17,976 nucleotides of DNA from Escherichia coli (GTDB lineage: Bacteria; Pseudomonadota; Gammaproteobacteria; Enterobacterales; Enterobacteriaceae): NCBI RefSeq assembly GCF_003334385.1, contig NZ_QOWN01000062.1; one strand, given 5' to 3'. A model generated the notes under the pieces. The model was not told the DNA's origin. It was given only the letters and a program-made list of their open reading frames with translations, and made no database searches. Every line of letters starts with the position of its first letter. The stretch's first letter is position 1. The position numbers and the translations under genes are program-made. Positions 1-17,976 of the stretch are shown here, one piece after another.

Positions 1-775
1 AGAGAGCGTAGGCCAGTTCGTCATCCAGTGTTTTCCATGTCTGCTTGTATTCGCGATGAATGGCAGCAATGACCGGGCTGATTTTTCCTGTTGAATTTTC
101 AGTGTACTGTTGATTGGCTCTGGCGCGGGCGAGATCAACAACAGATGTGTATTTTCCGGTTTCCTTGCGTTCACCTTCGCGACGTTTTTTCCAGATGCGC
201 ATCTCTGCCTGAATTTCGGGCCATTTGGCACCAGGCGTACATTTATGCTTAACCCACCCGATGGCATGCAGCTTAAGCTCCGGATACATGGCGTTAACTT
301 CTGGCATTTTCATCAACGCTTCAACGATATGTCCGTCGAATGTTGCCATGTCTTCCTGCAACAATTCCTGCGCGCTAATAACCATATCAACGGTGATGTT
401 TTCACATGTGTCGAACTTAACCATGACAGCGTTCTGTACTTCAGGGGCCAGCTTGTCAAAAGTGACGTTCATCGGATCGGATTCAGTCTCAACCGGGACA
501 AAAGAAGCAGACTCCTCATCCCAGCGGTTTTCCTGCATATATTCAGCATCCCATGAATCGAGGGCAGGGCGGGGTATGCCAGGTTTATCCTCGCAGACAA
601 TAAATTTATAAGCGCAGTCCTGAGCAGCCGGATAATGTTCCAGGAACTGCCAGTGAAATTTTGCTCGAGCACGGCGTTCGTCGCCAGCTTCAATGGCTGT
701 GGCTACAGCCACAGCGCCTTCTTCCCTTGTTGCCAGTTCGTCAGGAATAGCGGCGCAAATAAAGACTTTACTCAT
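1..775 (-). CDS. ydfE: Qin-type prophage protein YdfE-like, N-terminal ~258 codons; ORF continues past the window start
   Basis: Minus-strand ATG at 775-773 with GAGG about 10 nt upstream. My manual translation is stop-free to the window edge (absent from the ORF track because no stop lies inside the window). N-terminus MSKVFICAAIPDELATREEGAVAVATAIEAG. Sits directly downstream of ydfD as in Qin. Name from memory. Confidence 0.55.
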   Translation of the reverse strand, partial: MSKVFICAAIPDELATREEGAVAVATAIEAGDERRARAKFHWQFLEHYPAAQDCAYKFIVCEDKPGIPRPALDSWDAEYMQENRWDEESASFVPVETESDPMNVTFDKLAPEVQNAVMVKFDTCENITVDMVISAQELLQEDMATFDGHIVEALMKMPEVNAMYPELKLHAIGWVKHKCTPGAKWPEIQAEMRIWKKRREGERKETGKYTSVVDLARARANQQYTENSTGKISPVIAAIHREYKQTWKTLDDELAYAL

Positions 776-868
776 TTTGTTTTAACCTCATGACAGATTT
801 AAGGATGAACAAATCCCTGCCATTGCTGGCATATAAGAATGAAACCGGATATTTATTACGGAACTGTT

Positions 869-1060
869 TTAAAGACCTGCCGGGATTTCGTTATTATCCT
901 GGTGAATAACTTTATCGACCGGGTAACAGTTACCGGGAATTTTCTGTTCGGTTGCTGCAGTCATACACTCCTGCATTGTCCTGTGAACACTGACTGCAAT
1001 ATCAACTGGCACTCCGGAAACAAGAAAAACTGTCAGAACAAGCGCAAATGCTGAATTCAT
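869..1060 (-). CDS. ydfD: YdfD-like small protein (63 aa) with hydrophobic N-terminus
   Basis: Internal Met of track ORF 869..1114 gives MNSAFALVLTVFLVSG...NNEIPAGL. Start ATG (1060-1058) overlaps the dicB stop in an ATGA arrangement. Confidence 0.75.
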   Translation of the reverse strand: MNSAFALVLTVFLVSGVPVDIAVSVHRTMQECMTAATEQKIPGNCYPVDKVIHQDNNEIPAGL

Positions 1061-1245
1061 TGTGCACATCCTTTTGGCATCAGACGTAAACGAGCCAGCA
1101 TTGAAACAATGCATATTTTATTTAATAGCTCCCGTTCTTGTTTTCTCTTGTTAATGGCATCTTCAGTAAATACAGGGTTACTGATAGTGACACCAATTTC
1201 AAAACAACCTTCAGACGTATTAACGTTTGGTAATAACGTTTTCAT
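1057..1245 (-). CDS. dicB: DicB cell-division inhibitor (62 aa)
   Basis: Internal Met of track ORF 1057..1350 gives MKTLLPNVNTSEGCFEIGVTISNPVFTEDAINKRKQERELLNKICIVSMLARLRLMPKGCAQ, which I recognise as DicB. GAGGA Shine-Dalgarno upstream of the ATG at 1245-1243. Confidence 0.9.
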   Translation of the reverse strand: MKTLLPNVNTSEGCFEIGVTISNPVFTEDAINKRKQERELLNKICIVSMLARLRLMPKGCAQ

Positions 1246-1414
1246 TATCGCGTCCTCAACAATGAATTTTGTGATGCAGTGCCTGGTGCCTCCAGGTGAC
1301 GTTAACCAGTTAACAATTAACGTCGGATACAGAGAATCCACCCATAACACTGTTTTTGGTTTTAACTGTTCCGCGTGCGCTTAGCCGTATTCACCGCATC
1401 ACAAAATTCACTTT

Positions 1415-1472
1415 AAAAAGGGCGGCAGAGCAGTCACGGAGTAAAACTGATACCGCCAAACGTCACCAGAAA
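1415..1472 (-). ncRNA. dicF: DicF small RNA (ftsZ-targeting antisense sRNA) with its 3' hairpin and U-run
   Basis: Reverse complement of 1415-1472 reads TTTCTGGTGACGTTTGGCGGTATCAGTTTTACTCCGTGACTGCTCTGCCGCCCTTTTT, matching DicF as I recall it, ending in a GC-rich hairpin (GGCGG...CCGCC) plus T-run. Lies between the ydfC position and dicB as in the dicB operon. Confidence 0.9.
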
Positions 1473-1503
1473 ATTGATAACAGAGGGCGTTGCAGCGGGG
1501 TTG

Positions 1504-1695
1504 TCACTTAAGCGTATGGTCAACCTGACAACCCGGTGTCCTCAACGGGGAAGGAATAACCCCGCCATACTTACCGCCGCGCCATTTTGCGGGTTGCCAC
1601 AACCGGAAGCGCACGGTCGAATTAAATTTAACGACACCGTACAGTGAGACGAACTTCGCCGTGCGCTTTCGTGTTGTGTGCCTGCTTTTAACCAC
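1504..1695 (-). CDS. Small ORF at the ydfC position (63 codons, GTG start); coding status doubtful
   Basis: Track ORF MVKSRHTTRKRTAKF... between the ydfB stop and the DicF 5' end. GC-rich and Arg/Lys-rich; could instead be structured precursor RNA for DicF. Confidence 0.2.
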   Translation of the reverse strand: MVKSRHTTRKRTAKFVSLYGVVKFNSTVRFRLWQPAKWRGGKYGGVIPSPLRTPGCQVDHTLK

Positions 1696-1731
1696 GTCAG
1701 GCGAGGTGGTATCCTTAAAATCACCACAGTT

Positions 1732-2307
1732 TTAAGGATTCATTAAGCAATGTCGCAACCACCAATAAATCCGCTTAAGAACATGAAAATTGATTACTGG
1801 TATAAAGCGCTTACAGTTGTTGGCGCTGCGTTGTTTGTCTTTAATGGAACGTCTTTTTTTGACAGATATCCCGTTGTTCCATTGGGTTTTTTGTCCTCCG
1901 GCATCTTTTTTATTGGTTTGGGGGAGTGGATTAATCACCCTCTCATAGTGAGATTTATTGGTCCTGGAGTTTGGACTCGTGGATATAATCGTTCTTCGTG
2001 CGCACTCGGTATCATCTTCGACATACTTGGTTGTTTCCTGATTGTTACAGGAGTCGTCAAGTTCTTCTGATGTAAAACCGCAAATGGGGCACGTAACGGG
2101 AATTTTGAAAAGCGTTTCTCCGGGTTCCAGAACAAAATTTTCTGCGGTCTGATTTTGCTTCTCATATTTGTGCTCCGCGTCATTGTGAGAGCACATTCTT
2201 ATTCTGAGTGCCTGTTTAAACTCACTGAAGCTGAGAGCTTCTTCGCCTTCGGCAAGGCCTTCGAAGTATTCTTCGTAAGCCTTTTCCATGATTGTGTCGA
2301 AATCCAT
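1732..2307 (-). CDS. ydfB: YdfB-like ORF; the first 42 codons match the short YdfB I remember, but here the frame stays open for 191 codons
   Basis: ATG at 2307-2305 with AGGTGAG Shine-Dalgarno, 1 nt after the ydfA stop. Begins MDFDTIMEKAYEEYFEGLAEGEEALSFSEFKQALRIRMCSHN, then continues DAEHKYEKQ...CPICGF. The C-terminal part is low-complexity and may be a shadow of the antisense ORF at 1750..2070. Confidence 0.4.
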   Translation of the reverse strand: MDFDTIMEKAYEEYFEGLAEGEEALSFSEFKQALRIRMCSHNDAEHKYEKQNQTAENFVLEPGETLFKIPVTCPICGFTSEELDDSCNNQETTKYVEDDTECARRTIISTSPNSRTNKSHYERVINPLPQTNKKDAGGQKTQWNNGISVKKRRSIKDKQRSANNCKRFIPVINFHVLKRIYWWLRHCLMNP

Positions 2308-2308
2308 A

Positions 2309-2464
2309 TCACTCACCTGAGTTTCTTTCCAGCCAGCGACGGGCACCATTTTCGGTTTTAAACGTTTTGCTTTTGGTATACGTCATCGCGGTGAACGTAC
2401 CGTCCTGGTTGGGGAACACGCCACATACCAGAGATTCGCTGTTGCCAAGATCGATAGTATCCAT
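2309..2464 (-). CDS. ydfA: YdfA (51 aa)
   Basis: Internal Met of track ORF 2309..2518 gives MDTIDLGNSESLVCGVFPNQDGTFTAMTYTKSKTFKTENGARRWLERNSGE. GAGGT Shine-Dalgarno upstream of the ATG at 2464-2462. Confidence 0.85.
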   Translation of the reverse strand: MDTIDLGNSESLVCGVFPNQDGTFTAMTYTKSKTFKTENGARRWLERNSGE

Positions 2465-2534
2465 GCTGACCTCATTTCCCCTTAACGCCGGGGTAGCGGA
2501 ACTGTTTGCTGAGAACACCGTGCGGTGTCTTGAT

Positions 2535-2570
2535 GGAGGTAATTTAGTTTTCTCATTATTTTCGTCAAGG
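2535..2570 (-). promoter_or_regulatory. Candidate sigma-70 promoter for the ydfA-dicB operon
   Basis: On the minus strand: TTGACG (rc of 2563-2568), 16-nt spacer, TAAATT (rc of 2541-2546), lying between the dicA-like stop and the ydfA start. Judged by eye only. Confidence 0.35.
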
Positions 2571-2655
2571 TTTTTTGATGAGAAAGCTCAAGTATTGGCG
2601 CAAGATAAAGCCAATACATTGAAATGTAAGGCTTTAAAATTTTGTGAAGGGATGA

Positions 2656-3063
2656 TTATTGATGCTTGTTGCGTTTGCGAGCCTCTAATAGCTCGGTGAA
2701 CAGGCGATTAAAATTCTCAACGCGGGCGCGGAGTTCGCTGAGTTGTGCTTGTTGCTCTGATTTAGGAAGTGCGCGATACAAACGCAGCATCTCTAACTCA
2801 TCTTCCGATAAGTCTAAGGCACTATCGAGTGAAACAGGGGGAGCTGGTGTTTTGTCCTCGTCGCCAAACAGTATCCAAGTTGGTGAACATTGCAATACCT
2901 CGGCGAGGCGATGCAAATTTTGCCCGCGCGGGGCTGTATGGTCACTTTCCCATAATGAAATTGATGAGCCAGATACGCCAGCAGCTTTGCTTAAACCGTT
3001 TTGACTTAAGCCTACCTGCTTACGTCTTTCTCTAATGCGTTGACCTAAAGTTTTCTCGTTCAT
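2656..3063 (-). CDS. dicA: DicA-like HTH (XRE-family) repressor, 135 aa
   Basis: Internal Met of track ORF 2656..3114 gives MNEKTLGQRIRERRKQVGLSQNGLSKAAGVSGSSISLWE...VLQCSPTWILFGDEDK...; the VLQCSPTWILFGDEDK block and C-terminus match DicA as I recall it. Divergent from the Cro-like gene. Confidence 0.85.
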   Translation of the reverse strand: MNEKTLGQRIRERRKQVGLSQNGLSKAAGVSGSSISLWESDHTAPRGQNLHRLAEVLQCSPTWILFGDEDKTPAPPVSLDSALDLSEDELEMLRLYRALPKSEQQAQLSELRARVENFNRLFTELLEARKRNKHQ

Positions 3064-6967: not shown

Positions 6968-7301
6968 ATACAGCGAACTCCATTGGTTTAGTTGGATATT
7001 TACTGTGCTGGACAAAAACGGTTTGCGGGGAAATCTTAGTTAAGTAGAATGACTGCGGGTGCTTGAGGCTATCTGCCTCGGGCATGGACACCAACGGCAG
7101 ATAGAGAAAAGCCCCAGTTAACATTACGCGTCCTGCAAGACGCTTAACATTAATCTGAGGCCAATTTCATGCTAGACACATGTAGGTTAGCCTCTTACGT
7201 GCCGAAAGGCACGGAGAAGCAGGCTATTGTTAACACCAAGCTGTAATGTCCCCTTTGAACCATTCTAAAATGTCCCCAGACAATTCTCTGGGGGATTTTT
7301 C

Positions 7302-8615
7302 ATGATCAAAGAGACTGTTACGATGAGTCATAAGGAACTCCACCGACTTCAGATTATTCAGGAACAAGCTGCGGCACGCATTGGCATTTCTATTCGGCAG
7401 GTTAAACGTCTGGTGCAACGGTATAGAAATGAAGGGCCTTCTGGTCTGGTTTCCCACCGACGTGGAAAGCGTCCTAATAATTCCTTTTCTACTGAATTCA
7501 GAGCAACAGTAATTTCACTCCTCAAAGGCCGTTACGCTGATTTTGGACCTACGTTTGCGTGCGAAAAATTGCGCGAGATACACGGTTTATCTTTATCCGT
7601 TGAAACTCTCAGAAAGTGGATGATAGAAGAGGGGTTATGGCGTGAACGCCGTCGTAAAATTGCCCGTATATATCAACGCCGCATGCGACGACCATCTTAC
7701 GGTGAACTGATCCAGATTGATGGCTCACCTCATGACTGGTTTGAAAATCGAGGCCCCAGATGTACACTGATCGTTTTCATTGATGATGCCACCAGTGCGT
7801 TGATGGCGTTGCGTTTTGTGCCTGCTGAAACAACCCGGGCTTACATGGAAACCCTCCGGGGTTACCTTAATGATCATGGCGTACCGCTCGCTCTCTACTC
7901 TGATAGACACAGTATATTCAGGGTAAATAACCCAGAGCGGGAAGGTGAGCTGACCCAGTTCACTCGTGCGATAAAGACACTGGGCATCGAGCCAATCCAT
8001 GCCAACAGCCCGCAGGCAAAAGGGCGGGTAGAGCGCGCCAATCAGACACTACAGGACAGGCTGGTCAAAGAAATGCGGCTTCAGAATATCAGTGATATTG
8101 AAACAGCAAATGCATGGTTGCCGACCTTTATTGAAGCCTATAACAACCGGTTCGCTACGTCGCCTCGTACTACTGATAATGCTCATCTTGATGTGCACCA
8201 TTCTGAAGAGGAACTGGGTTATATCTTCAGCCTACAGGCGAAGCGCGTTCTGTCTAAAAATCTCACTTTCCAGTACAAAAGCAGTGCGTTTCAGGTACGC
8301 AGTGAGGGCCGGGGATATCGACTTAGGCATTCGGTTGTTACTGTATGCGAGAACTTTGACGGTGAAATTAACGTTCTGTATGACGGGAAAGCGCTGGGCT
8401 GGGAAAAGTATGTTGATGGCCCGGAGCCTATACCACTGGATGATGAAAAGAGTGTCCATGAACGAGTGGATAATGCCCGTATTGATTTACGCTCAAAATA
8501 CTATGTTAAACCTAAAGCTGACCATCCCTGGCTTACGCGCCGAACGCAAAGTCATCAGCAAGTTAAGCCCCCGAAGTTACCTAAAAAGAAGCCTGATCCC
8601 GATAAAAAAGATTGA
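7302..8615 (+). CDS. IS-element DDE transposase (integrase-core/rve type with N-terminal HTH), 437 aa; family uncertain (IS481-like or ISNCY-like)
   Basis: Track ORF with HTH-like N-terminus (IGISIRQVKRLVQRY) and candidate DDE residues in IQIDGSPHDW, IVFIDDATSA and GRVERANQTLQD. Ends of the element could not be defined. Confidence 0.8.
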   Translation: MIKETVTMSHKELHRLQIIQEQAAARIGISIRQVKRLVQRYRNEGPSGLVSHRRGKRPNNSFSTEFRATVISLLKGRYADFGPTFACEKLREIHGLSLSVETLRKWMIEEGLWRERRRKIARIYQRRMRRPSYGELIQIDGSPHDWFENRGPRCTLIVFIDDATSALMALRFVPAETTRAYMETLRGYLNDHGVPLALYSDRHSIFRVNNPEREGELTQFTRAIKTLGIEPIHANSPQAKGRVERANQTLQDRLVKEMRLQNISDIETANAWLPTFIEAYNNRFATSPRTTDNAHLDVHHSEEELGYIFSLQAKRVLSKNLTFQYKSSAFQVRSEGRGYRLRHSVVTVCENFDGEINVLYDGKALGWEKYVDGPEPIPLDDEKSVHERVDNARIDLRSKYYVKPKADHPWLTRRTQSHQQVKPPKLPKKKPDPDKKD

Positions 8616-10886: not shown

Positions 10887-11192
10887 ATGATGAACATCGA
10901 AGAACTGCGTAAAATTTTTTGTGAAGATGGCCTCTATGCTGTGTGCGTTGAAAATGGAAATCTTGTTAGTCATTACCGCATTATGTGTTTGCGAAAGAAT
11001 GGGGCTGCGTTAATTAATTTTGTGGATGCTCGGGTCACGGACGGATTTATCTTGCGCGAAGGTGAGTTTGTCACTTCATTACAGGCATTGAAAGAGATCG
11101 GAATAAAAGCTGGCTTTTCTGCTTTTCTGGTAACAAAGTGCTGGCAGGAAGAAGCATACGCGGAAGCGCAATTGAGGAAGGTGACGAGATAA
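10887..11192 (+). CDS. rem: Rem-like small protein
   Basis: Track ORF MMNIEELRKIFCEDGLYAVCVENGNLVSHYRIMCLRKNGAALINFVDARVTDGFILREGEF... resembles Rem of Qin. The C-terminus may differ in length from K-12. Confidence 0.65.
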   Translation: MMNIEELRKIFCEDGLYAVCVENGNLVSHYRIMCLRKNGAALINFVDARVTDGFILREGEFVTSLQALKEIGIKAGFSAFLVTKCWQEEAYAEAQLRKVTR

Positions 11193-11613: not shown

Positions 11614-11826
11614 TCATGAAAGGTAAACATTGGCAGCTGAAGGGCCACGCAGACCATTTATCCGGCAAAATTCCACGCGTAATCCGGTGGTAATTTCTTC
11701 TGCATCGCGGAGATTGAGCGCTGAAACATGAAGCTGGACATCGATACGACCATCGGATGGGGTGATAAGACCCTTGCCGCTTTTGCCGTCAAAGGTTTTG
11801 ACAATTCCTGTCATTTTACGGGACAA
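11614..11826 (-). CDS. cspF: CspF/CspH-like cold-shock-domain protein (70 aa, apparent TTG start)
   Basis: Track [73 protein letters not shown]. Divergent from cspB as in Qin. Confidence 0.75.
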
Positions 11827-12126
11827 AAAAATTCCTTAATACTGATAACTTGGCGCACTATACACACGTTCCTGAAGAAAGCTATAGTTTTTTGATGGGG
11901 TTGAAGATGGCTGGATGTCTAAAATAAACATTGCTTCATATGTTCAACTATGCGTTAATGATTGCGTCGGTTTGAAGAACAGACGATATACGAAGTAGTT
12001 TACTAAAGCAGTTCTCATTTCAGGTGTTATTCACTTATTCCTTCTTTGAGTCTCTCCAATTAAGTACGAAGTCGTTTCTGTTATGCAAACCATTTATGCC
12101 GAAAGGCTCAAGTTAAGGAATGTAGA

Positions 12127-12342
12127 ATGTCAAATAAAATGACTGGTTTAGTAAAATGGTTTAACGCTGATAAAGGTTTCGGCTTTATTTCTCCTGTTGA
12201 TGGTAGTAAAGATGTGTTTGTGCATTTTTCTGCGATTCAGAATGATAATTATCGAACCTTATTTGAAGGTCAAAAGGTTACCTTCTCTATAGAGAGTGGT
12301 GCTAAAGGTCCTGCAGCAGCAAATGTCATCATTACTGATTAA
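12127..12342 (+). CDS. cspB: Cold-shock protein CspB (71 aa)
   Basis: [71 protein letters not shown]. Long 5' UTR containing a TGCCGAAAGGC box, as in the csp family. Confidence 0.9.
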
Positions 12343-12624
12343 AATTCATCGCTCGTCTGTATACGATAACGAAGAAGGCTGATGCCTGAGTAGAGATACG
12401 GACAGAGTAGTGAATATTGGATCTCTTTAATAAAAAGTAAGGAGGTCCAATACATGAAACAATGGCCAGCATATTTGGCAAAATCTTAATCAGGAAAAGT
12501 ATGCTAACCATTGTGGTGAAGTGCAGGTTTGCTGCATGAATAGTTTTACAGCAGAAGCTAACTGCTGGCATGGCAAAACAAAGTGCGTAAGTGGATGACT
12601 CCCACAAAAAGCACCACAATCTCA

Positions 12625-12648
12625 AACCCGCTCAGGCGGGTTTTTTAT
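12625..12648 (+). terminator. Intrinsic terminator downstream of cspB
   Basis: CCCGC-TCAG-GCGGG hairpin followed by TTTTTTATT. Confidence 0.55.
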
Positions 12649-12705
12649 TATCTGCTTTAAATATATTATTAAAATATAAAAAATACTTGTTACTAATAAA
12701 ATCAA

Positions 12706-12927
12706 TCAGGCTACAGCTTTAAGATTTGTCTGGAATACTTTGTTGCAATGAGGGCAGATCAAAAGGGCACCTTTTTGTACTCTTGAAAAACTGTGTTCTG
12801 ACTCTTGGGTGCAGTTTGGGCAGGAACATTTAACGAGATAATTACGGCGTGATTTTGAGTTTTTACGTTCTGACATAGGCTTTTCCTGTATAAATGGCCG
12901 TATACAGTACACTAAATATGAAAACAT
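12706..12927 (-). CDS. Small zinc-ribbon protein (CxxC ... CxxC), possibly YdfK/YnaE-like
   Basis: Track ORF containing KCSCPNCTQESEHSFSRVQKGALLICPHCNKVF. The true start may be the internal MSERKNSKS. Name is tentative. Confidence 0.5.
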   Translation of the reverse strand: MFSYLVYCIRPFIQEKPMSERKNSKSRRNYLVKCSCPNCTQESEHSFSRVQKGALLICPHCNKVFQTNLKAVA

Positions 12928-13095
12928 TTCTCGTATTATTATTTTATATATGACTTTCTTTCAAAATAATTACCCACATTTTTAATGTGTATGTTTTTTT
13001 AGCGCCGTTGAGAACAACGTGTGCTGTCAAAACTACCCCGTAGACTCCGATCTTTTCAAACATATTGCACCATCCGTGTACATCGGGGTGAGGAT

Positions 13096-13311
13096 ATGAA
13101 ATCAATGGATAAGTTAACAACAGGTGTTGCCTATGGCACATCGGCGGGTAATGCTGGTTTCTGGGCATTGCAGTTACTCGATAAAGTAACTCCGTCACAG
13201 TGGGCTGCAATCGGTGTGCTGGGTAGCCTGGTTTTTGGCCTGCTGACGTATCTGACAAATCTTTATTTCAAGATTAAAGAAGACAGGCGTAAGGCTGCGA
13301 GAGGAGAGTAA
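13096..13311 (+). CDS. essQ: Phage-21-type pinholin S (71 aa) with a dual-start motif (MKSM)
   Basis: ATG at 13096 and a second ATG at 13105; GGGGTGAGGA Shine-Dalgarno. [71 protein letters not shown] resembles S21. Confidence 0.85.
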
Positions 13312-13315
13312 TCCA

Positions 13316-13623
13316 ATGACTCAAGACTATGAACTGGTTGTGAAAGGAGTCCGTAATTTTGAGAATAAAGTTACGGTAACTGTAGCCTTACAGGACAAAG
13401 AACGCTTTGACGGTGAAATTTTTGACCTGGATGTCGCCATGGACCGTGTTGAAGGAGCTGCGCTGGAGTTTTATGAGGCAGCAGCCAGAAGGAGCGTCCG
13501 GCAAGTCTTCCTGGAAGTAGCAGAAAAATTGTCAGAAAAAGTTGAGTCTTATCTGCAGCATCAGTACTCCTTTAAGATTGAAAATCCTGCCAATAAGCAC
13601 GAGCGTCCTCATCATAAATATCT

Positions 13624-13627
<4 letters not shown>
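13316..13627 (+). CDS. ydfR: YdfR-like protein (103 aa) between holin and endolysin
   Basis: Track ORF MTQDYELVVKGVRNFENKVTVTVALQDKERFDGEIFDLDVAMD... Same position and length as ydfR in Qin as I recall. Confidence 0.6.
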
Positions 13628-14651
<1,024 letters not shown>

Positions 14652-15013
14652 GGTAATATTAAATCGGAACATTTACATCGCGGAATGTAAAATTTAAATA
14701 AAAAGGACTCTTCCATGAGCCAAAATTCCTGAAATCTTAAGGGTAAGATAAAAGGTCTTAATCAGAATGACACGTTTTATTAATAAATAAAGCTATTCTT
14801 TCATTGCTGTGTTTTTCTTTACAAAAGTAATCCTTGCTATGGGTGGTTAATCATGCGTTAATGGTGTTCTGGTTTGTTACAAATTTATCTGAAGCAGTCA
14901 TTGTTATAATTTTATTATTTGTACCTCTTGAGATTTCCTTGTTGGTTTTTCTCTCTGATATTTTTTTTCGGACCATTCTGCCCAAGGGCTAATTTCTTCA
15001 AAAGGTAATAATT

Positions 15014-15226
15014 ATGTCTAACAAAATGACTGGTTTAGTGAAATGGTTTAACCCTGAAAAAGGTTTTGGTTTCATCACGCCGAAAGATGGCAGCAAAGAT
15101 GTGTTTGTCCATTTCTCAGCAATTCAGAGCAACGATTTCAAAACATTAACTGAGAATCAGGAAGTTGAATTTGGTATTGAGAACGGACCTAAAGGTCCTG
15201 CCGCTGTTCATGTAGTGGCGCTTTGA
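15014..15226 (+). CDS. cspI: Cold-shock protein CspI (70 aa)
   Basis: [70 protein letters not shown]. Confidence 0.88.
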
Positions 15227-15314
15227 GGTAGACAATATTACAAACCATATTCACTTTAGATGCCCGTGTTGTCATGGTTCCCAGTATAGAACATCATCTT
15301 TTGATGTTTCTGAC

Positions 15315-15425
15315 ATGAATCCTTTCGGGGCAAAATGTATCTTTTGTAAATCAATGATGATTACATTTGATAATATTTCACAATACTTAAATGCCAGCCG
15401 TCTGTCGTTGGATTTAAAAAAGTGA
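15315..15425 (+). CDS. YnfN-like small zinc-ribbon ORF; only the ATG-initiated C-terminal part is annotated
   Basis: The frame is open from 15216 and encodes ...RCPCCHGSQYRTSSFDVSDMNPFGAKCIFCKSMMITFDNISQYLNASRLSLDLKK, but the CPCC half of the zinc ribbon has no in-frame ATG/GTG/TTG upstream. An out-of-frame ATG at 15259 suggests a frameshift. Confidence 0.3.
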   Translation: MNPFGAKCIFCKSMMITFDNISQYLNASRLSLDLKK

Positions 15426-15432
15426 AAATGAA

Positions 15433-15453
15433 GGCTCCTTCGGGAGCTTTTTT
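15433..15453 (+). terminator. Intrinsic terminator after the cspI / ynfN-like region
   Basis: GGCTCC-TTCG-GGAGC hairpin followed by TTTTTTG. Confidence 0.6.
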
Positions 15454-15497
15454 GCTTGGTGTCTATTCGATGGATACTCACATACTACGGTAACATC

Positions 15498-15728
15498 ATG
15501 AAAAAAATCATAGTTTTTTTTAACTCTGAACCAGCAGTGGTAGTGCCAGCGATGACTGGAGTTAACACCATCATGCGTGAATATCCAAATGGCGAAAAAA
15601 CACACCTTACTGTAATGGCCGCAGGGTTTCCATCTCTGACCGGAGATCATAAAGTCATTTATGTAGCCGCGGATCGACATGTTACTTCAGAAGAAATTCT
15701 GGAAGCAGCAATAAGGCTCTTGAGTTGA
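15498..15728 (+). CDS. Hypothetical 76-aa protein
   Basis: Internal ATG of track ORF 15456..15728: MKKIIVFFNSEPAVVVPAMTGVNTIMREYPNGEKTHLTVMAAGFPSLTGDHKVIYVAADRHVTSEEILEAAIRLLS. Starts just after a terminator. I recall no gene at this position in K-12 Qin. Confidence 0.45.
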   Translation: MKKIIVFFNSEPAVVVPAMTGVNTIMREYPNGEKTHLTVMAAGFPSLTGDHKVIYVAADRHVTSEEILEAAIRLLS

Positions 15729-15896
15729 TTTGATGCTATTGCATTGATAATTCAGGAAAATTCTCTTTGTCTGTTTGTGTAAAATTTAGACTATCGTATG
15801 TTGATTATTGCGATGTTTCATCTTATCTTTTACACGTTTGCACCATATAATCGACTTACTGTGTAACTGGAAAGTCATAACAGACTAAAAGAGGAA

Positions 15897-16073
15897 ATGA
15901 TGAATATTGAAAACTTAAAAACAAAAGCAGAAGCAGATATTTCTGAATATATAACAAAAAAAATTATTGAACTTAAGAAAAAGACCGGGAAAGAAGTTAC
16001 CAGTATTCAGTTTACCGCACGGGAAAAAATGACGGGTCTTGAAAGCTATGATGTCAAGATTAATTTAATCTGA
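15897..16073 (+). CDS. gnsB: GnsB-like protein (58 aa)
   Basis: Manual translation MMNIENLKTKAEADISEYITKKIIELKKKTGKEVTSIQFTAREKMTGLESYDVKINLI; AGAGGA Shine-Dalgarno. Resembles GnsA/GnsB. Under 60 aa, so absent from the ORF track. Confidence 0.8.
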   Translation: MMNIENLKTKAEADISEYITKKIIELKKKTGKEVTSIQFTAREKMTGLESYDVKINLI

Positions 16074-16224
16074 TGTATTCAATAATAAAATTTATCCATA
16101 AACCTCGTTTTTACGGGGTTTTGTTATATTTGAATGGTTCCGAATATCTAAATCACAATTGTTGATGGTTTTTATTAAACCAATGCAGTCCGGCCCAGGA
16201 GTGAGAGAAGCCGGACGTTATGGT

Positions 16225-16635
16225 TTAGCGTGGTAAGATCTGTGTAGTTTTCTGGATGCTTTCAGTAAATAGTAATGAATTATCAAAGGTATAGTAATAT
16301 CTTTTTTGTTCGTGGATATTTGTAACCCACCGAAAAACTCCTGCTTTAGCAAGGTTTCTTCTGTATTCCTGAAATGTGATCTCTCTGGATTTCAGCTTAT
16401 TAGAGGTCGTTTCTATAAGATGCCTATCCTTTGAAAATTTGACAGACACAATGTTTTTTAGGCCCTTTAATAACACTGTATTATCATTTTTTAATACAAT
16501 ATGAACATTCTCTGTGGCTAAATAGTAAATGTAATGTGAGACATTGTGACGTTTTAGCTCAGAATAAAACCATTGATAGTTTAAATCGTTTCGAACTTTA
16601 TCAAATATTTGTTTAAAAATGACTACCTGATCCAT
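16225..16635 (-). CDS. ydfO: YdfO-like protein (136 aa from the ATG at 16635)
   Basis: Track ORF 16225..16650; internal Met with GGAAGG Shine-Dalgarno gives [49 protein letters not shown]..., recognised as YdfO. Confidence 0.8.
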
Positions 16636-16692
16636 AGATAAACCTTCCATGTGATATGAGGGGGCGTAGTCTGCACGATTATCTAAATTGCT

Positions 16693-16926
16693 TCAATCTG
16701 GTCTGACCTGTTTTCTGAGCAATTCAGTAATGTCACTCTTTTCTTTGTTTGCTTCAGAAGAAACTCTTTTTTCTGAGCACAGTCTCCGGCGGCAGGCTTC
16801 AATGACCCAGGCTGAGAAATTCCCGGACCCTTTTTGCTCAAGAGCGATGTTAATTTGTTCAATCATTTGGTTAGGAAAGCGGATGTTGCGGGTTGTTGTT
16901 CTGCGGGTTTTGTTCTTCGTTGACAT
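16693..16926 (-). CDS. Ribbon-helix-helix (Arc/CopG-like) DNA-binding protein, 77 aa (possibly ynfO)
   Basis: Track ORF with a basic N-terminus and an RHH-like segment TRNIRFPNQMIEQINIALEQKGSGNFSAWVIEACRRRL. Lies next to cos and nohA. Confidence 0.6.
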   Translation of the reverse strand: MSTKNKTRRTTTRNIRFPNQMIEQINIALEQKGSGNFSAWVIEACRRRLCSEKRVSSEANKEKSDITELLRKQVRPD

Positions 16927-17089
16927 GAGGTTGCCCCGTATTCAGTGTCGCTGATTTGTATTGTCTGAAGTTGTTTTTACGTTAAGTTGATGCAGATCAA
17001 TTAATACGATACCTGCGTCATAATTGATTATTTGACGTGGTTTGATGGCGTAGATGCACGTTGTGACATATAGATGATAATTATTATCA

Positions 17090-17314
17090 TTTTGCGGGTC
17101 CTTTCCGGCGATCCGACAGGTTACGGGGCGGCGACCTCGCGGGTTTTCGCTATTTATGAAAATTTTCCGGTTTAAGGCGTTTCCGTTCTTCTTTGCCGTA
17201 ACTTAATGTTTTTATTTAAAACACCCTCTGAAAAGAAAGGAAACGACAGGTGCTGAAAACGAGCTTTTTGGCCTCTGTCGTTTCCTTTCTCTGTTTTTGT
17301 CCGTGGAATGAACA
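17090..17314 (+). promoter_or_regulatory. Lambda-type cos site: cosQ, cosN (12-nt cohesive end GGGCGGCGACCT at 17126-17137) and cosB up to the Nu1 start
   Basis: ...CGGGTCCTTTCCGGCGATCCGACAGGTTACG | GGGCGGCGACCT | CGCGGGTTTTCGCTATTTATGAAAATTTTCC... matches the right and left ends of the phage lambda genome as I remember them, then runs into the Nu1 start. Confidence 0.8.
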
Positions 17315-17860
17315 ATGGAAGTCAACAAAAAGCAGCTGGCTGACATTTTCGGCGCGACTATCCGTACCATTCAGAACTGGCAGGAGCAGGGAATGCCCGT
17401 TCTGCGGGGTGGTGGCAAGGGTAATGAAGTGCTTTATGACTCTGCCGCCGCCATAAAATGGTATGCCGAAAGGGATGCTGAAATTGAGAACGAAAAGCTG
17501 CGCCGGGAAGTTGAAGAACTGCGGCAGGCCAGCGAGACAGATCTCCAGCCAGGGACTATTGAGTACGAACGCCATCGACTTACGCGTGCGCAGGCCGACG
17601 CACAGGAGCTGAAAAATGCCAGAGACTCCGCTGAAGTGGTGGAAACCGCATTCTGTACTTTCGTGCTGTCGCGGATCGCAGGTGAAATTGCCAGTATTCT
17701 CGACGGGATCCCCCTGTCGGTGCAGCGGCGTTTTCCGGAACTGGAAAACCGACATGTTGATTTCCTGAAACGGGATATCATCAAAGCCATGAACAAAGCA
17801 GCCGCGCTGGATGAACTGATACCGGGGTTGCTGAGTGAATATATCGAACAGTCAGGTTAA
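17315..17860 (+). CDS. nohA: Terminase small subunit Nu1 (NohA), 181 aa
   Basis: MEVNKKQLADIFGATIRTIQNWQEQGMPVLRGGGKGNEVLYDSAAAIKWYAERDAEIENEKLRREVEEL... is near-identical to lambda Nu1. Confidence 0.92.
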   Translation: MEVNKKQLADIFGATIRTIQNWQEQGMPVLRGGGKGNEVLYDSAAAIKWYAERDAEIENEKLRREVEELRQASETDLQPGTIEYERHRLTRAQADAQELKNARDSAEVVETAFCTFVLSRIAGEIASILDGIPLSVQRRFPELENRHVDFLKRDIIKAMNKAAALDELIPGLLSEYIEQSG

Positions 17861-17976
17861 CAGGCTGCGGCATTTTGTCCGCGCCGGGCTTCGCTCACTG
17901 TTCAGGCCGGAGCCACAGACCGCCGTTGAATGGGCGGATGCCAATTACTATCTCCCGAAAGAATCCGCATACCAGG
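17835..17976 (+). CDS. Terminase large subunit (gpA-like), N-terminal 47 codons; continues beyond the window; GTG start
   Basis: From GTG at 17835: (M/V)NISNSQVNRLRHFVRAGLRSLFRPEPQTAVEWADANYYLPKESAYQ matches the lambda gpA N-terminus. Overlaps the Nu1 3' end by 26 nt as in lambda. Confidence 0.8.
   Translation, partial: MNISNSQVNRLRHFVRAGLRSLFRPEPQTAVEWADANYYLPKESAYQ

Follow-up and report, generated by a model that had tools for sequence, protein, structure and literature searches.

Lambda, its relatives and the Qin prophage

In phage lambda the cosB segment of the cos site has the architecture R3-I1-R2-R1 as described by the Feiss laboratory, bp 56, 58 and 59 are the recognition positions of R3, and the spacing between cosN and R3 is critical (PMC4669245). 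Residues 20 and 24 of the recognition helix of the small terminase subunit set the specificity for lambda versus phage 21, and N15, phage 21 and related phages have different cosB and R sequences and a different packaging specificity (PMC4669245). The I2 segment extends over approximately bp 18-50, and the 238-bp segment from lambda bp 48446 to 182 serves as a functional cos in plasmids (PMC4856287). The packaging module of the Qin-type prophages of Escherichia coli is already known, and its gene nohA is named as the homologue of the lambda small subunit Nu1. The Qin cos region itself has been known since the 1980s through lambda-Qin hybrid phages.

Here we analyzed a stretch of 17,976 nucleotides of E. 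coli DNA (contig NZ_QOWN01000062.1 of assembly GCF_003334385.1), which is called the window in its whole length. Its right end, positions 17069-17976, holds a complete cos of lambda specificity, the gene nohA (Nu1) and the first 47 codons of the terminase gene A. The lambda reference NC_001416 was taken as bp 1-3000 together with bp 46000-48502, and the joined junction of its right and left ends was aligned to the window; the alignment places lambda bp 1 at 17126, Nu1 (191-736) at 17315-17860 and the start of A (711) at 17835. The identity to lambda over the whole of this cos-Nu1-A' segment is 97.6%. By megablast against phage records, positions 17090-17976 matched 95 records, 79 of which cover at least 80% of the query; lambda-like phages match at 97-98.6% identity over the full length with an E-value of 0, lambda itself is found among them with the same 97.6%, and a match of this kind is far beyond chance.

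As judged from sequence comparison, the region is very probably a standard lambda-specificity packaging module carried in a Qin-type lambdoid prophage of E. coli, with a GTG start of gene A that is native to it. An earlier note on this DNA had already suggested a lambda-type module within a Qin-like element, and this agrees with the identity to lambda and with the 99.5% identity of positions 11681-17843 to the Qin prophage of strain K-12. The same note had also supposed a change of the start codon of gene A away from that of lambda. The main outcome of the present work is the removal of this false lead, the supposed change being absent, and the point matters little.

Compared with lambda (NC_001416, 48446-48502 plus 1-853), the order, spacing and sequence of cosQ, cosN, I2, R3, I1, R2 and R1 are the same, along with the cohesive end, a Nu1 of 181 aa, the start of A by TGA and then GTG, the overlap of 26 nt and residues 1-47 of gpA. 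About 2.4% of the nucleotides differ, in spacers and at wobble positions, and there are four substitutions in Nu1. The R2-R1 interval is 1 bp shorter in the window, and the cos of the window is joined inside a prophage whereas that of lambda lies at the ends of the virion DNA.

The cos site and the small subunit Nu1

The complete cos is present in its joined (prophage or concatemer) form at 17069-17305 on the plus strand, where it aligns with lambda bp 48446-182. The heptamer GGGTCCT at 17096-17102 (+) is identical to lambda 48473-48479, and from its coordinates and sequence we take it to be cosQ, the packaging-termination signal. In the work of Wieczorek and Feiss of 2001 cosQ is said to be the 7-bp GGGTCCT standing 17 bp from cosN, and in the window cosQ lies upstream of cosN at the same distance of 17 bp with one substitution in the spacer. 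Most viral contigs of IMG/VR, 88 of 106, carry this same substitution, T>C at lambda 48486. The 22-bp nicking site cosN at 17120-17141 (+) is identical to lambda 48497-16 and contains the 12-nt cohesive end GGGCGGCGACCT at 17126-17137 (+), identical to lambda bp 1-12. The base that corresponds to 17126 is the first one in the records of phages 2G7b and Perceval (query position 37 aligned to record position 1), which is consistent with 17126 as the position of the cohesive end.

Between cosN and cosB the AT-rich I2 is found at 17143-17175 (+) and is identical to lambda bp 18-50. It is followed by R3 at 17178-17193 (+), by homology a small-subunit binding site of cosB, which is identical to lambda bp 53-68 (approximate limits) and has its recognition positions at bp 56, 58 and 59 intact. 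From lambda bp 1 to 68 there is neither an indel nor a substitution in the window, and the cosN-R3 spacing is unchanged. The I1 region was located at 17199-17216 (-), lambda 74-91, by a consensus scan as the best IHF consensus matches between R3 and R2; these matches are the same in lambda and in the window, and the variants at lambda 69, 71, 73 and 97 lie outside them. R2, an inverted copy of the R element, stands at 17230-17245 (-), identical to lambda 105-120, and R1 at 17279-17294 (+), identical to lambda 155-170. The three R elements were also recovered de novo, as one direct and two inverted repeats, R1 being the direct repeat of R3.

All differences of the cos from lambda are located in spacers, namely at lambda 48486, at 69, 71, 73 and 97, at 134, and in a missing G at 138, and most of them are common alleles among the 106 IMG/VR contigs. 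The G of lambda bp 138, in the R2-R1 interval, is missing from the window (between 17262 and 17263) and from all 106 of these contigs; at this position it is the lambda reference that carries the outlier allele. Since the differences are limited to spacers and all named subsites are identical, the cos is not disrupted, and the integrity check by alignment to lambda that the earlier note had proposed comes out in favor of an intact site. The sequence features of a lambda-specificity cos are all found, namely the cohesive end within cosN, the spacing of cosQ, a complex cosB and the R3 positions.

The gene nohA (17315-17860, +) starts with ATG and encodes a Nu1 of 181 aa, identified by Pfam, by PHROG and by the lambda alignment. 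The Pfam match, to Phage_Nu1 (PF07471) with an E-value of 1.6e-100, spans the whole model (positions 1-164 of 164), and among the PHROGs the protein matches family 57, the terminase small subunit, with an E-value of 2.7e-76. NCBIfam returned a family for neither Nu1 nor the 47-aa gpA fragment, and Pfam and PHROGs named both. The nohA product is identical to lambda Nu1 at 177 of 181 residues; the four differences S15T, V46A, A75T and L132I are conservative, and both Q20 and E24 are retained. With these results the earlier description of cosQ, the 12-nt end, cosB and Nu1 as close to lambda is borne out.

By homology with lambda, dimers of Nu1 would bind the R elements and IHF would bend the DNA at I1, and gpA, thus positioned, would nick cosN at sites 12 nt apart and generate the cohesive end, with cosQ needed for the terminating cut. 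The comparisons show identity of sequence, conserved subsites and one and the same start codon in the lambda reference and in thousands of copies; that the cos and the terminase proteins of the window would function is inferred.

The GTG start of gene A

The 5' part of the terminase large-subunit gene A occupies 17835-17976 (+), 142 nt with 47 codons up to the end of the window. Its first codon is a GTG with an in-frame TGA immediately before it, and its reading frame, +1 to that of nohA, shares 26 nt with the end of nohA. Residues 1-47 of gpA are the same as those of lambda (47 of 47), the 47-aa fragment matches PHROG terminase large-subunit families, and the presence of a homologous N-terminal segment starting within the 3' end of the Nu1 gene agrees with an assignment to gpA.

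The GTG itself was read correctly in the earlier note, which went on to suppose that lambda has ATG at this position and that Nu1 accordingly reads LNEY there. This is incorrect. The annotation of NC_001416 puts gene A at 711-2636 with GTG as bases 711-713, and the lambda Nu1 has the same C-terminus, LLSEYIEQSG, as that of the window; the alignment to the lambda reference, which the note itself had named as the deciding comparison, gives the GTG in lambda also and refutes the supposed change. The window is moreover identical to lambda over bp 585-817, a stretch that covers the whole translation initiation region of A, as read from the alignment by eye.

The occurrence of the codon was surveyed in two collections. 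A 31-mer with N at the first base of the codon was searched in IMG/VR and gave at least 120 contigs; among the matches listed the first base was G in 120 of 120, and forms of the 31-mer with A, C or T at this base were absent from the whole IMG/VR collection. The other collection was that of 5,426 complete E. coli genomes, where an exact copy of the native 61-mer centred on the GTG was present in 3,616 of 3,765 records that matched, and one of a synthetic 61-mer with ATG in none of 3,752. The invariance of the G was considered as a proof of selection and was rejected as such, since 96% of the matching records carry the entire 61-mer unchanged and so low a diversity is enough to explain the invariance.

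More distant relatives were sampled by tblastn and the DNA at the start codon was then read. Phage phi80 has the same TGA-GTG arrangement as lambda and the window. In N15, phage 21, PhiR12_4 and Pseudomonas phage vB_Pae_U6 the homologous codon is ATG, and the small subunit of N15 reads LLNDY at the homologous position; the ATG and LNEY of the earlier note may derive from relatives such as N15. The lambda-like phages around N15 and phage 21 have homologous subunits with a large-subunit start that overlaps the end of the small-subunit gene, and N15 shares the arrangement of a TGA followed by the start, but in this group the start is ATG with an overlap of 29 nt, compared with GTG and 26 nt in the window. 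For annotators it is a small but useful point that all copies recovered with this surrounding sequence, from complete E. coli genomes and from IMG/VR alike, have GTG, and the more distant relatives ATG.

The proposal of the earlier note, that an ATG-to-GTG mutation at the start of A (with a change of N to S in Nu1) may lower the translation of the large subunit in this prophage, can draw on the ATG of these four phages and on the generally lower strength of GTG starts; in E. coli reporters the canonical non-AUG codons initiate at 10-100% of the AUG level (bioRxiv 10.1101/063800). Against it, the lambda reference has the same GTG and LSEY, phi80 likewise has GTG, the surrounding initiation region is identical to that of lambda, and an ATG copy in the same sequence context was absent both from the 5,426 E. 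coli genomes (approximately 3,750 matching records) and from IMG/VR. We consider that such a mutation has practically no probability left.

It may also be argued that the GTG is a convention of annotation, that the real start of gpA lies downstream, and that the 26-nt overlap is untranslated in the frame of A; the Shine-Dalgarno-like GGGG, situated 10-13 nt upstream of the GTG, is indeed weak. The GTG is, however, the first possible start after the in-frame TGA, and the next in-frame ATG occurs only at codon 61, as counted on the translation. In N15, phage 21, PhiR12_4 and the Pseudomonas phage the homologous codon is ATG and the next residues are conserved (M/V-N/I-I/T-S), and residues 1-47 show 100% conservation with lambda. 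In lambda gpA interacts with Nu1 through its extreme N-terminus, which also counts against a downstream start. We therefore regard this alternative as very improbable, and the ATG starts of the relatives at the homologous codon argue for the GTG of lambda as the true initiation codon and not an artefact of annotation.

GTG is an ordinary start in bacteria and is used by approximately 14% of E. coli genes (bioRxiv 10.1101/063800). A search of the open-access literature for the start codon of lambda A and for the control of terminase synthesis gave nothing usable, and the start is therefore taken from the RefSeq annotation and the sequence itself. Any effect of the GTG on the expression of gpA is one that we infer. 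The start of A at a GTG that follows a TGA and lies within nohA, 26 nt from its end, is native in lambda and phi80 and does not represent a mutation in the window; if the GTG and the overlap keep gpA modest or coupled to the translation of Nu1, the same would hold in lambda. Any dampening by the GTG would be common to the lambda/phi80 lineage as a whole and not peculiar to the copy in the window.

Two wider readings were also considered, to which we give together a rather low probability. In the first, the GTG is fixed in the lineage and may be kept in order to hold gpA below Nu1. The reported terminase protomer is 2:1, and a synthesis of the large subunit below that of the small one might match this ratio. 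In the second, the intact lambda-specificity cos of this Qin variant lacking Q could be cut in trans by lambda-type helper phages, and the adjacent DNA packaged or transduced by them. Both are general readings, neither specific to the window nor shown by it.

Rare alleles, the quuQ deletion and the Qin context

Two variants of the window are rare. Position 17194 has T in place of C at lambda bp 69, one base 3' of the R3 boundary as drawn here, and an exact copy of the haplotype with this T is present in 17 of the 2,946 E. coli records that match. The 61-mer with C at 17358, which gives S15T in Nu1, is exact in a single one of 1,571 matching E. coli records, that of strain A17, and T at residue 15 of Nu1 was found in 0 of 111 viral contigs. 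An artefact of the window was considered for both positions and rejected; both variants are present in A17, a strain from an otter, and are therefore real alleles. Residue 15 presumably stands at the start of the recognition helix. From the sequence, the bp 69 variant or S15T could weaken binding, and both appear to be conservative and to fall outside the positions known to matter.

Over 16900-17976 the window differs from the Qin prophage of E. coli SCU-104 at 14 positions, of which 13 are clustered in the 260 bp of 17194-17451 and the 14th is at 17957. In 17194-17451 the window matches copies of the 'nohD' type, for example that of O26:H11 str. 11368, and over 16900-17976 the 11368 copy has only three differences from the window, at 17194, 17196 and 17358. 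This copy sits in a prophage with genes of the DLP12 type (quuD, essD, rrrD). The pattern suggests that 17194-17451 is a patch of recombination between prophages.

Over its entire length the window aligns with Qin prophages, and most closely with that of SCU-104, at 99.8%. In SCU-104 the order is int/xis by rspB, dicB, relBE, hokD, cspB/F, essD (the annotated name)-rrrQ-rzpQ, cspI, gnsB, ydfO, ynfO and nohA, followed by an intact A gene of 1,926 bp (equivalent to 641 aa) and lambda-like head and tail genes, of which the tail gene at the position of lambda M is a pseudogene. By this annotation and by the identity to K-12 Qin over 6.2 kb, the window has the gene content and order of the Qin cryptic prophage. 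The K-12 Qin prophage (nohA, b1548) has the same order cspB-essQ-rrrQ-rzpQ-cspI-gnsB-ydfO-ynfO-cos-nohA, but the window keeps the native end of nohA and continues into A whereas K-12 is deleted from 9 nt into A, the homology ending at window 17843. The K-12 deletion fuses nohA to stfQ, and the resulting NohA has 189 aa with an altered C-terminus (…LLSEYNRADRQYAGGSRS). As the native nohA/A junction is kept in the window and lost in K-12, the window element is less decayed at this end.

At another place the window has lost DNA. Comparison with the SCU-104 Qin prophage places the junction of a 2,109-bp deletion at 11126-11127; the missing DNA comprises the 3' tip of rem, a small gene, ydfU and most of quuQ (ydfT), of which the last 22 codons, stop included, remain. 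The deletion creates an in-frame rem'-'quuQ fusion ORF of 101 aa at 10887-11192. No obvious repeat was seen at the 11126-11127 junction, and the rem'-'quuQ junction as one piece occurs in 0 of 5,426 complete E. coli genomes. K-12 Qin presumably retains ydfU and quuQ, so that the window differs from it in being without both, the direct comparison having been made with SCU-104 only. The routes of decay of this cryptic prophage thus differ between strains, the window having kept the nohA/A junction and lost the antiterminator.

The product of quuQ is the late antiterminator, which would normally drive the late operon that includes nohA and A. Judged by the way late genes are regulated in lambdoid phages, an element that lacks the Q antiterminator would probably not use its own late promoter to express the module, and with late expression unlikely the question of the efficiency of A translation in the window element becomes largely moot.

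The rare alleles and the loss of Q may also be taken together, as signs that the module is a decayed and non-functional remnant in which bp 69 and S15T disable the cos and NohA. The rarity of both variants, the deletion of the antiterminator gene and the pseudogene at the lambda M position in SCU-104, the closest genome, are in its favor. Several points speak against it. None of the defined subsites is altered, nor are the R3 positions 56, 58 and 59 or the distance from cosN to R3. The exchange S15T is a conservative one, and Nu1 still has its specificity residues Q20 and E24. The reading frame of nohA is open over its full length, and its product matches the Pfam model from end to end. Both rare variants, moreover, are shared with the natural strain A17. 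On balance we consider such decay unlikely, and prefer the standard lambda-specificity module proposed above.

Several further elements were observed along the window. The gene ynfO lies at 16693-16926, and its product YnfO of 77 aa matches NCBIfam NF041551. In lambda, at approximately 48109-48303 on the minus strand and just left of cosQ, there is a 64-codon ORF (MSTKNRTRRTTTRNIRFPNQMIEQINIALEQKG…) homologous to YlcI/YnfO, which is absent from the annotated features of NC_001416 in 46000-48502. At 7302-8615 (+) the window has an open ORF of 437 aa; in the annotation of SCU-104 the corresponding ISNCY-family transposase is a partial pseudogene, and the copy in the window may be intact. Rfam gave four matches above the gathering score, to the DicF sRNA at 1420-1471 (-), to a Sok antitoxin RNA at 7057-7228 (+), approximately 3.3 kb upstream of the inferred position of hokD, and to two 5' leaders of the cspA thermoregulator type at 11966-12358 (+) and 14868-15253 (+), upstream of cspB and cspI; these DicF, Sok and csp-leader matches are expected features of Qin.
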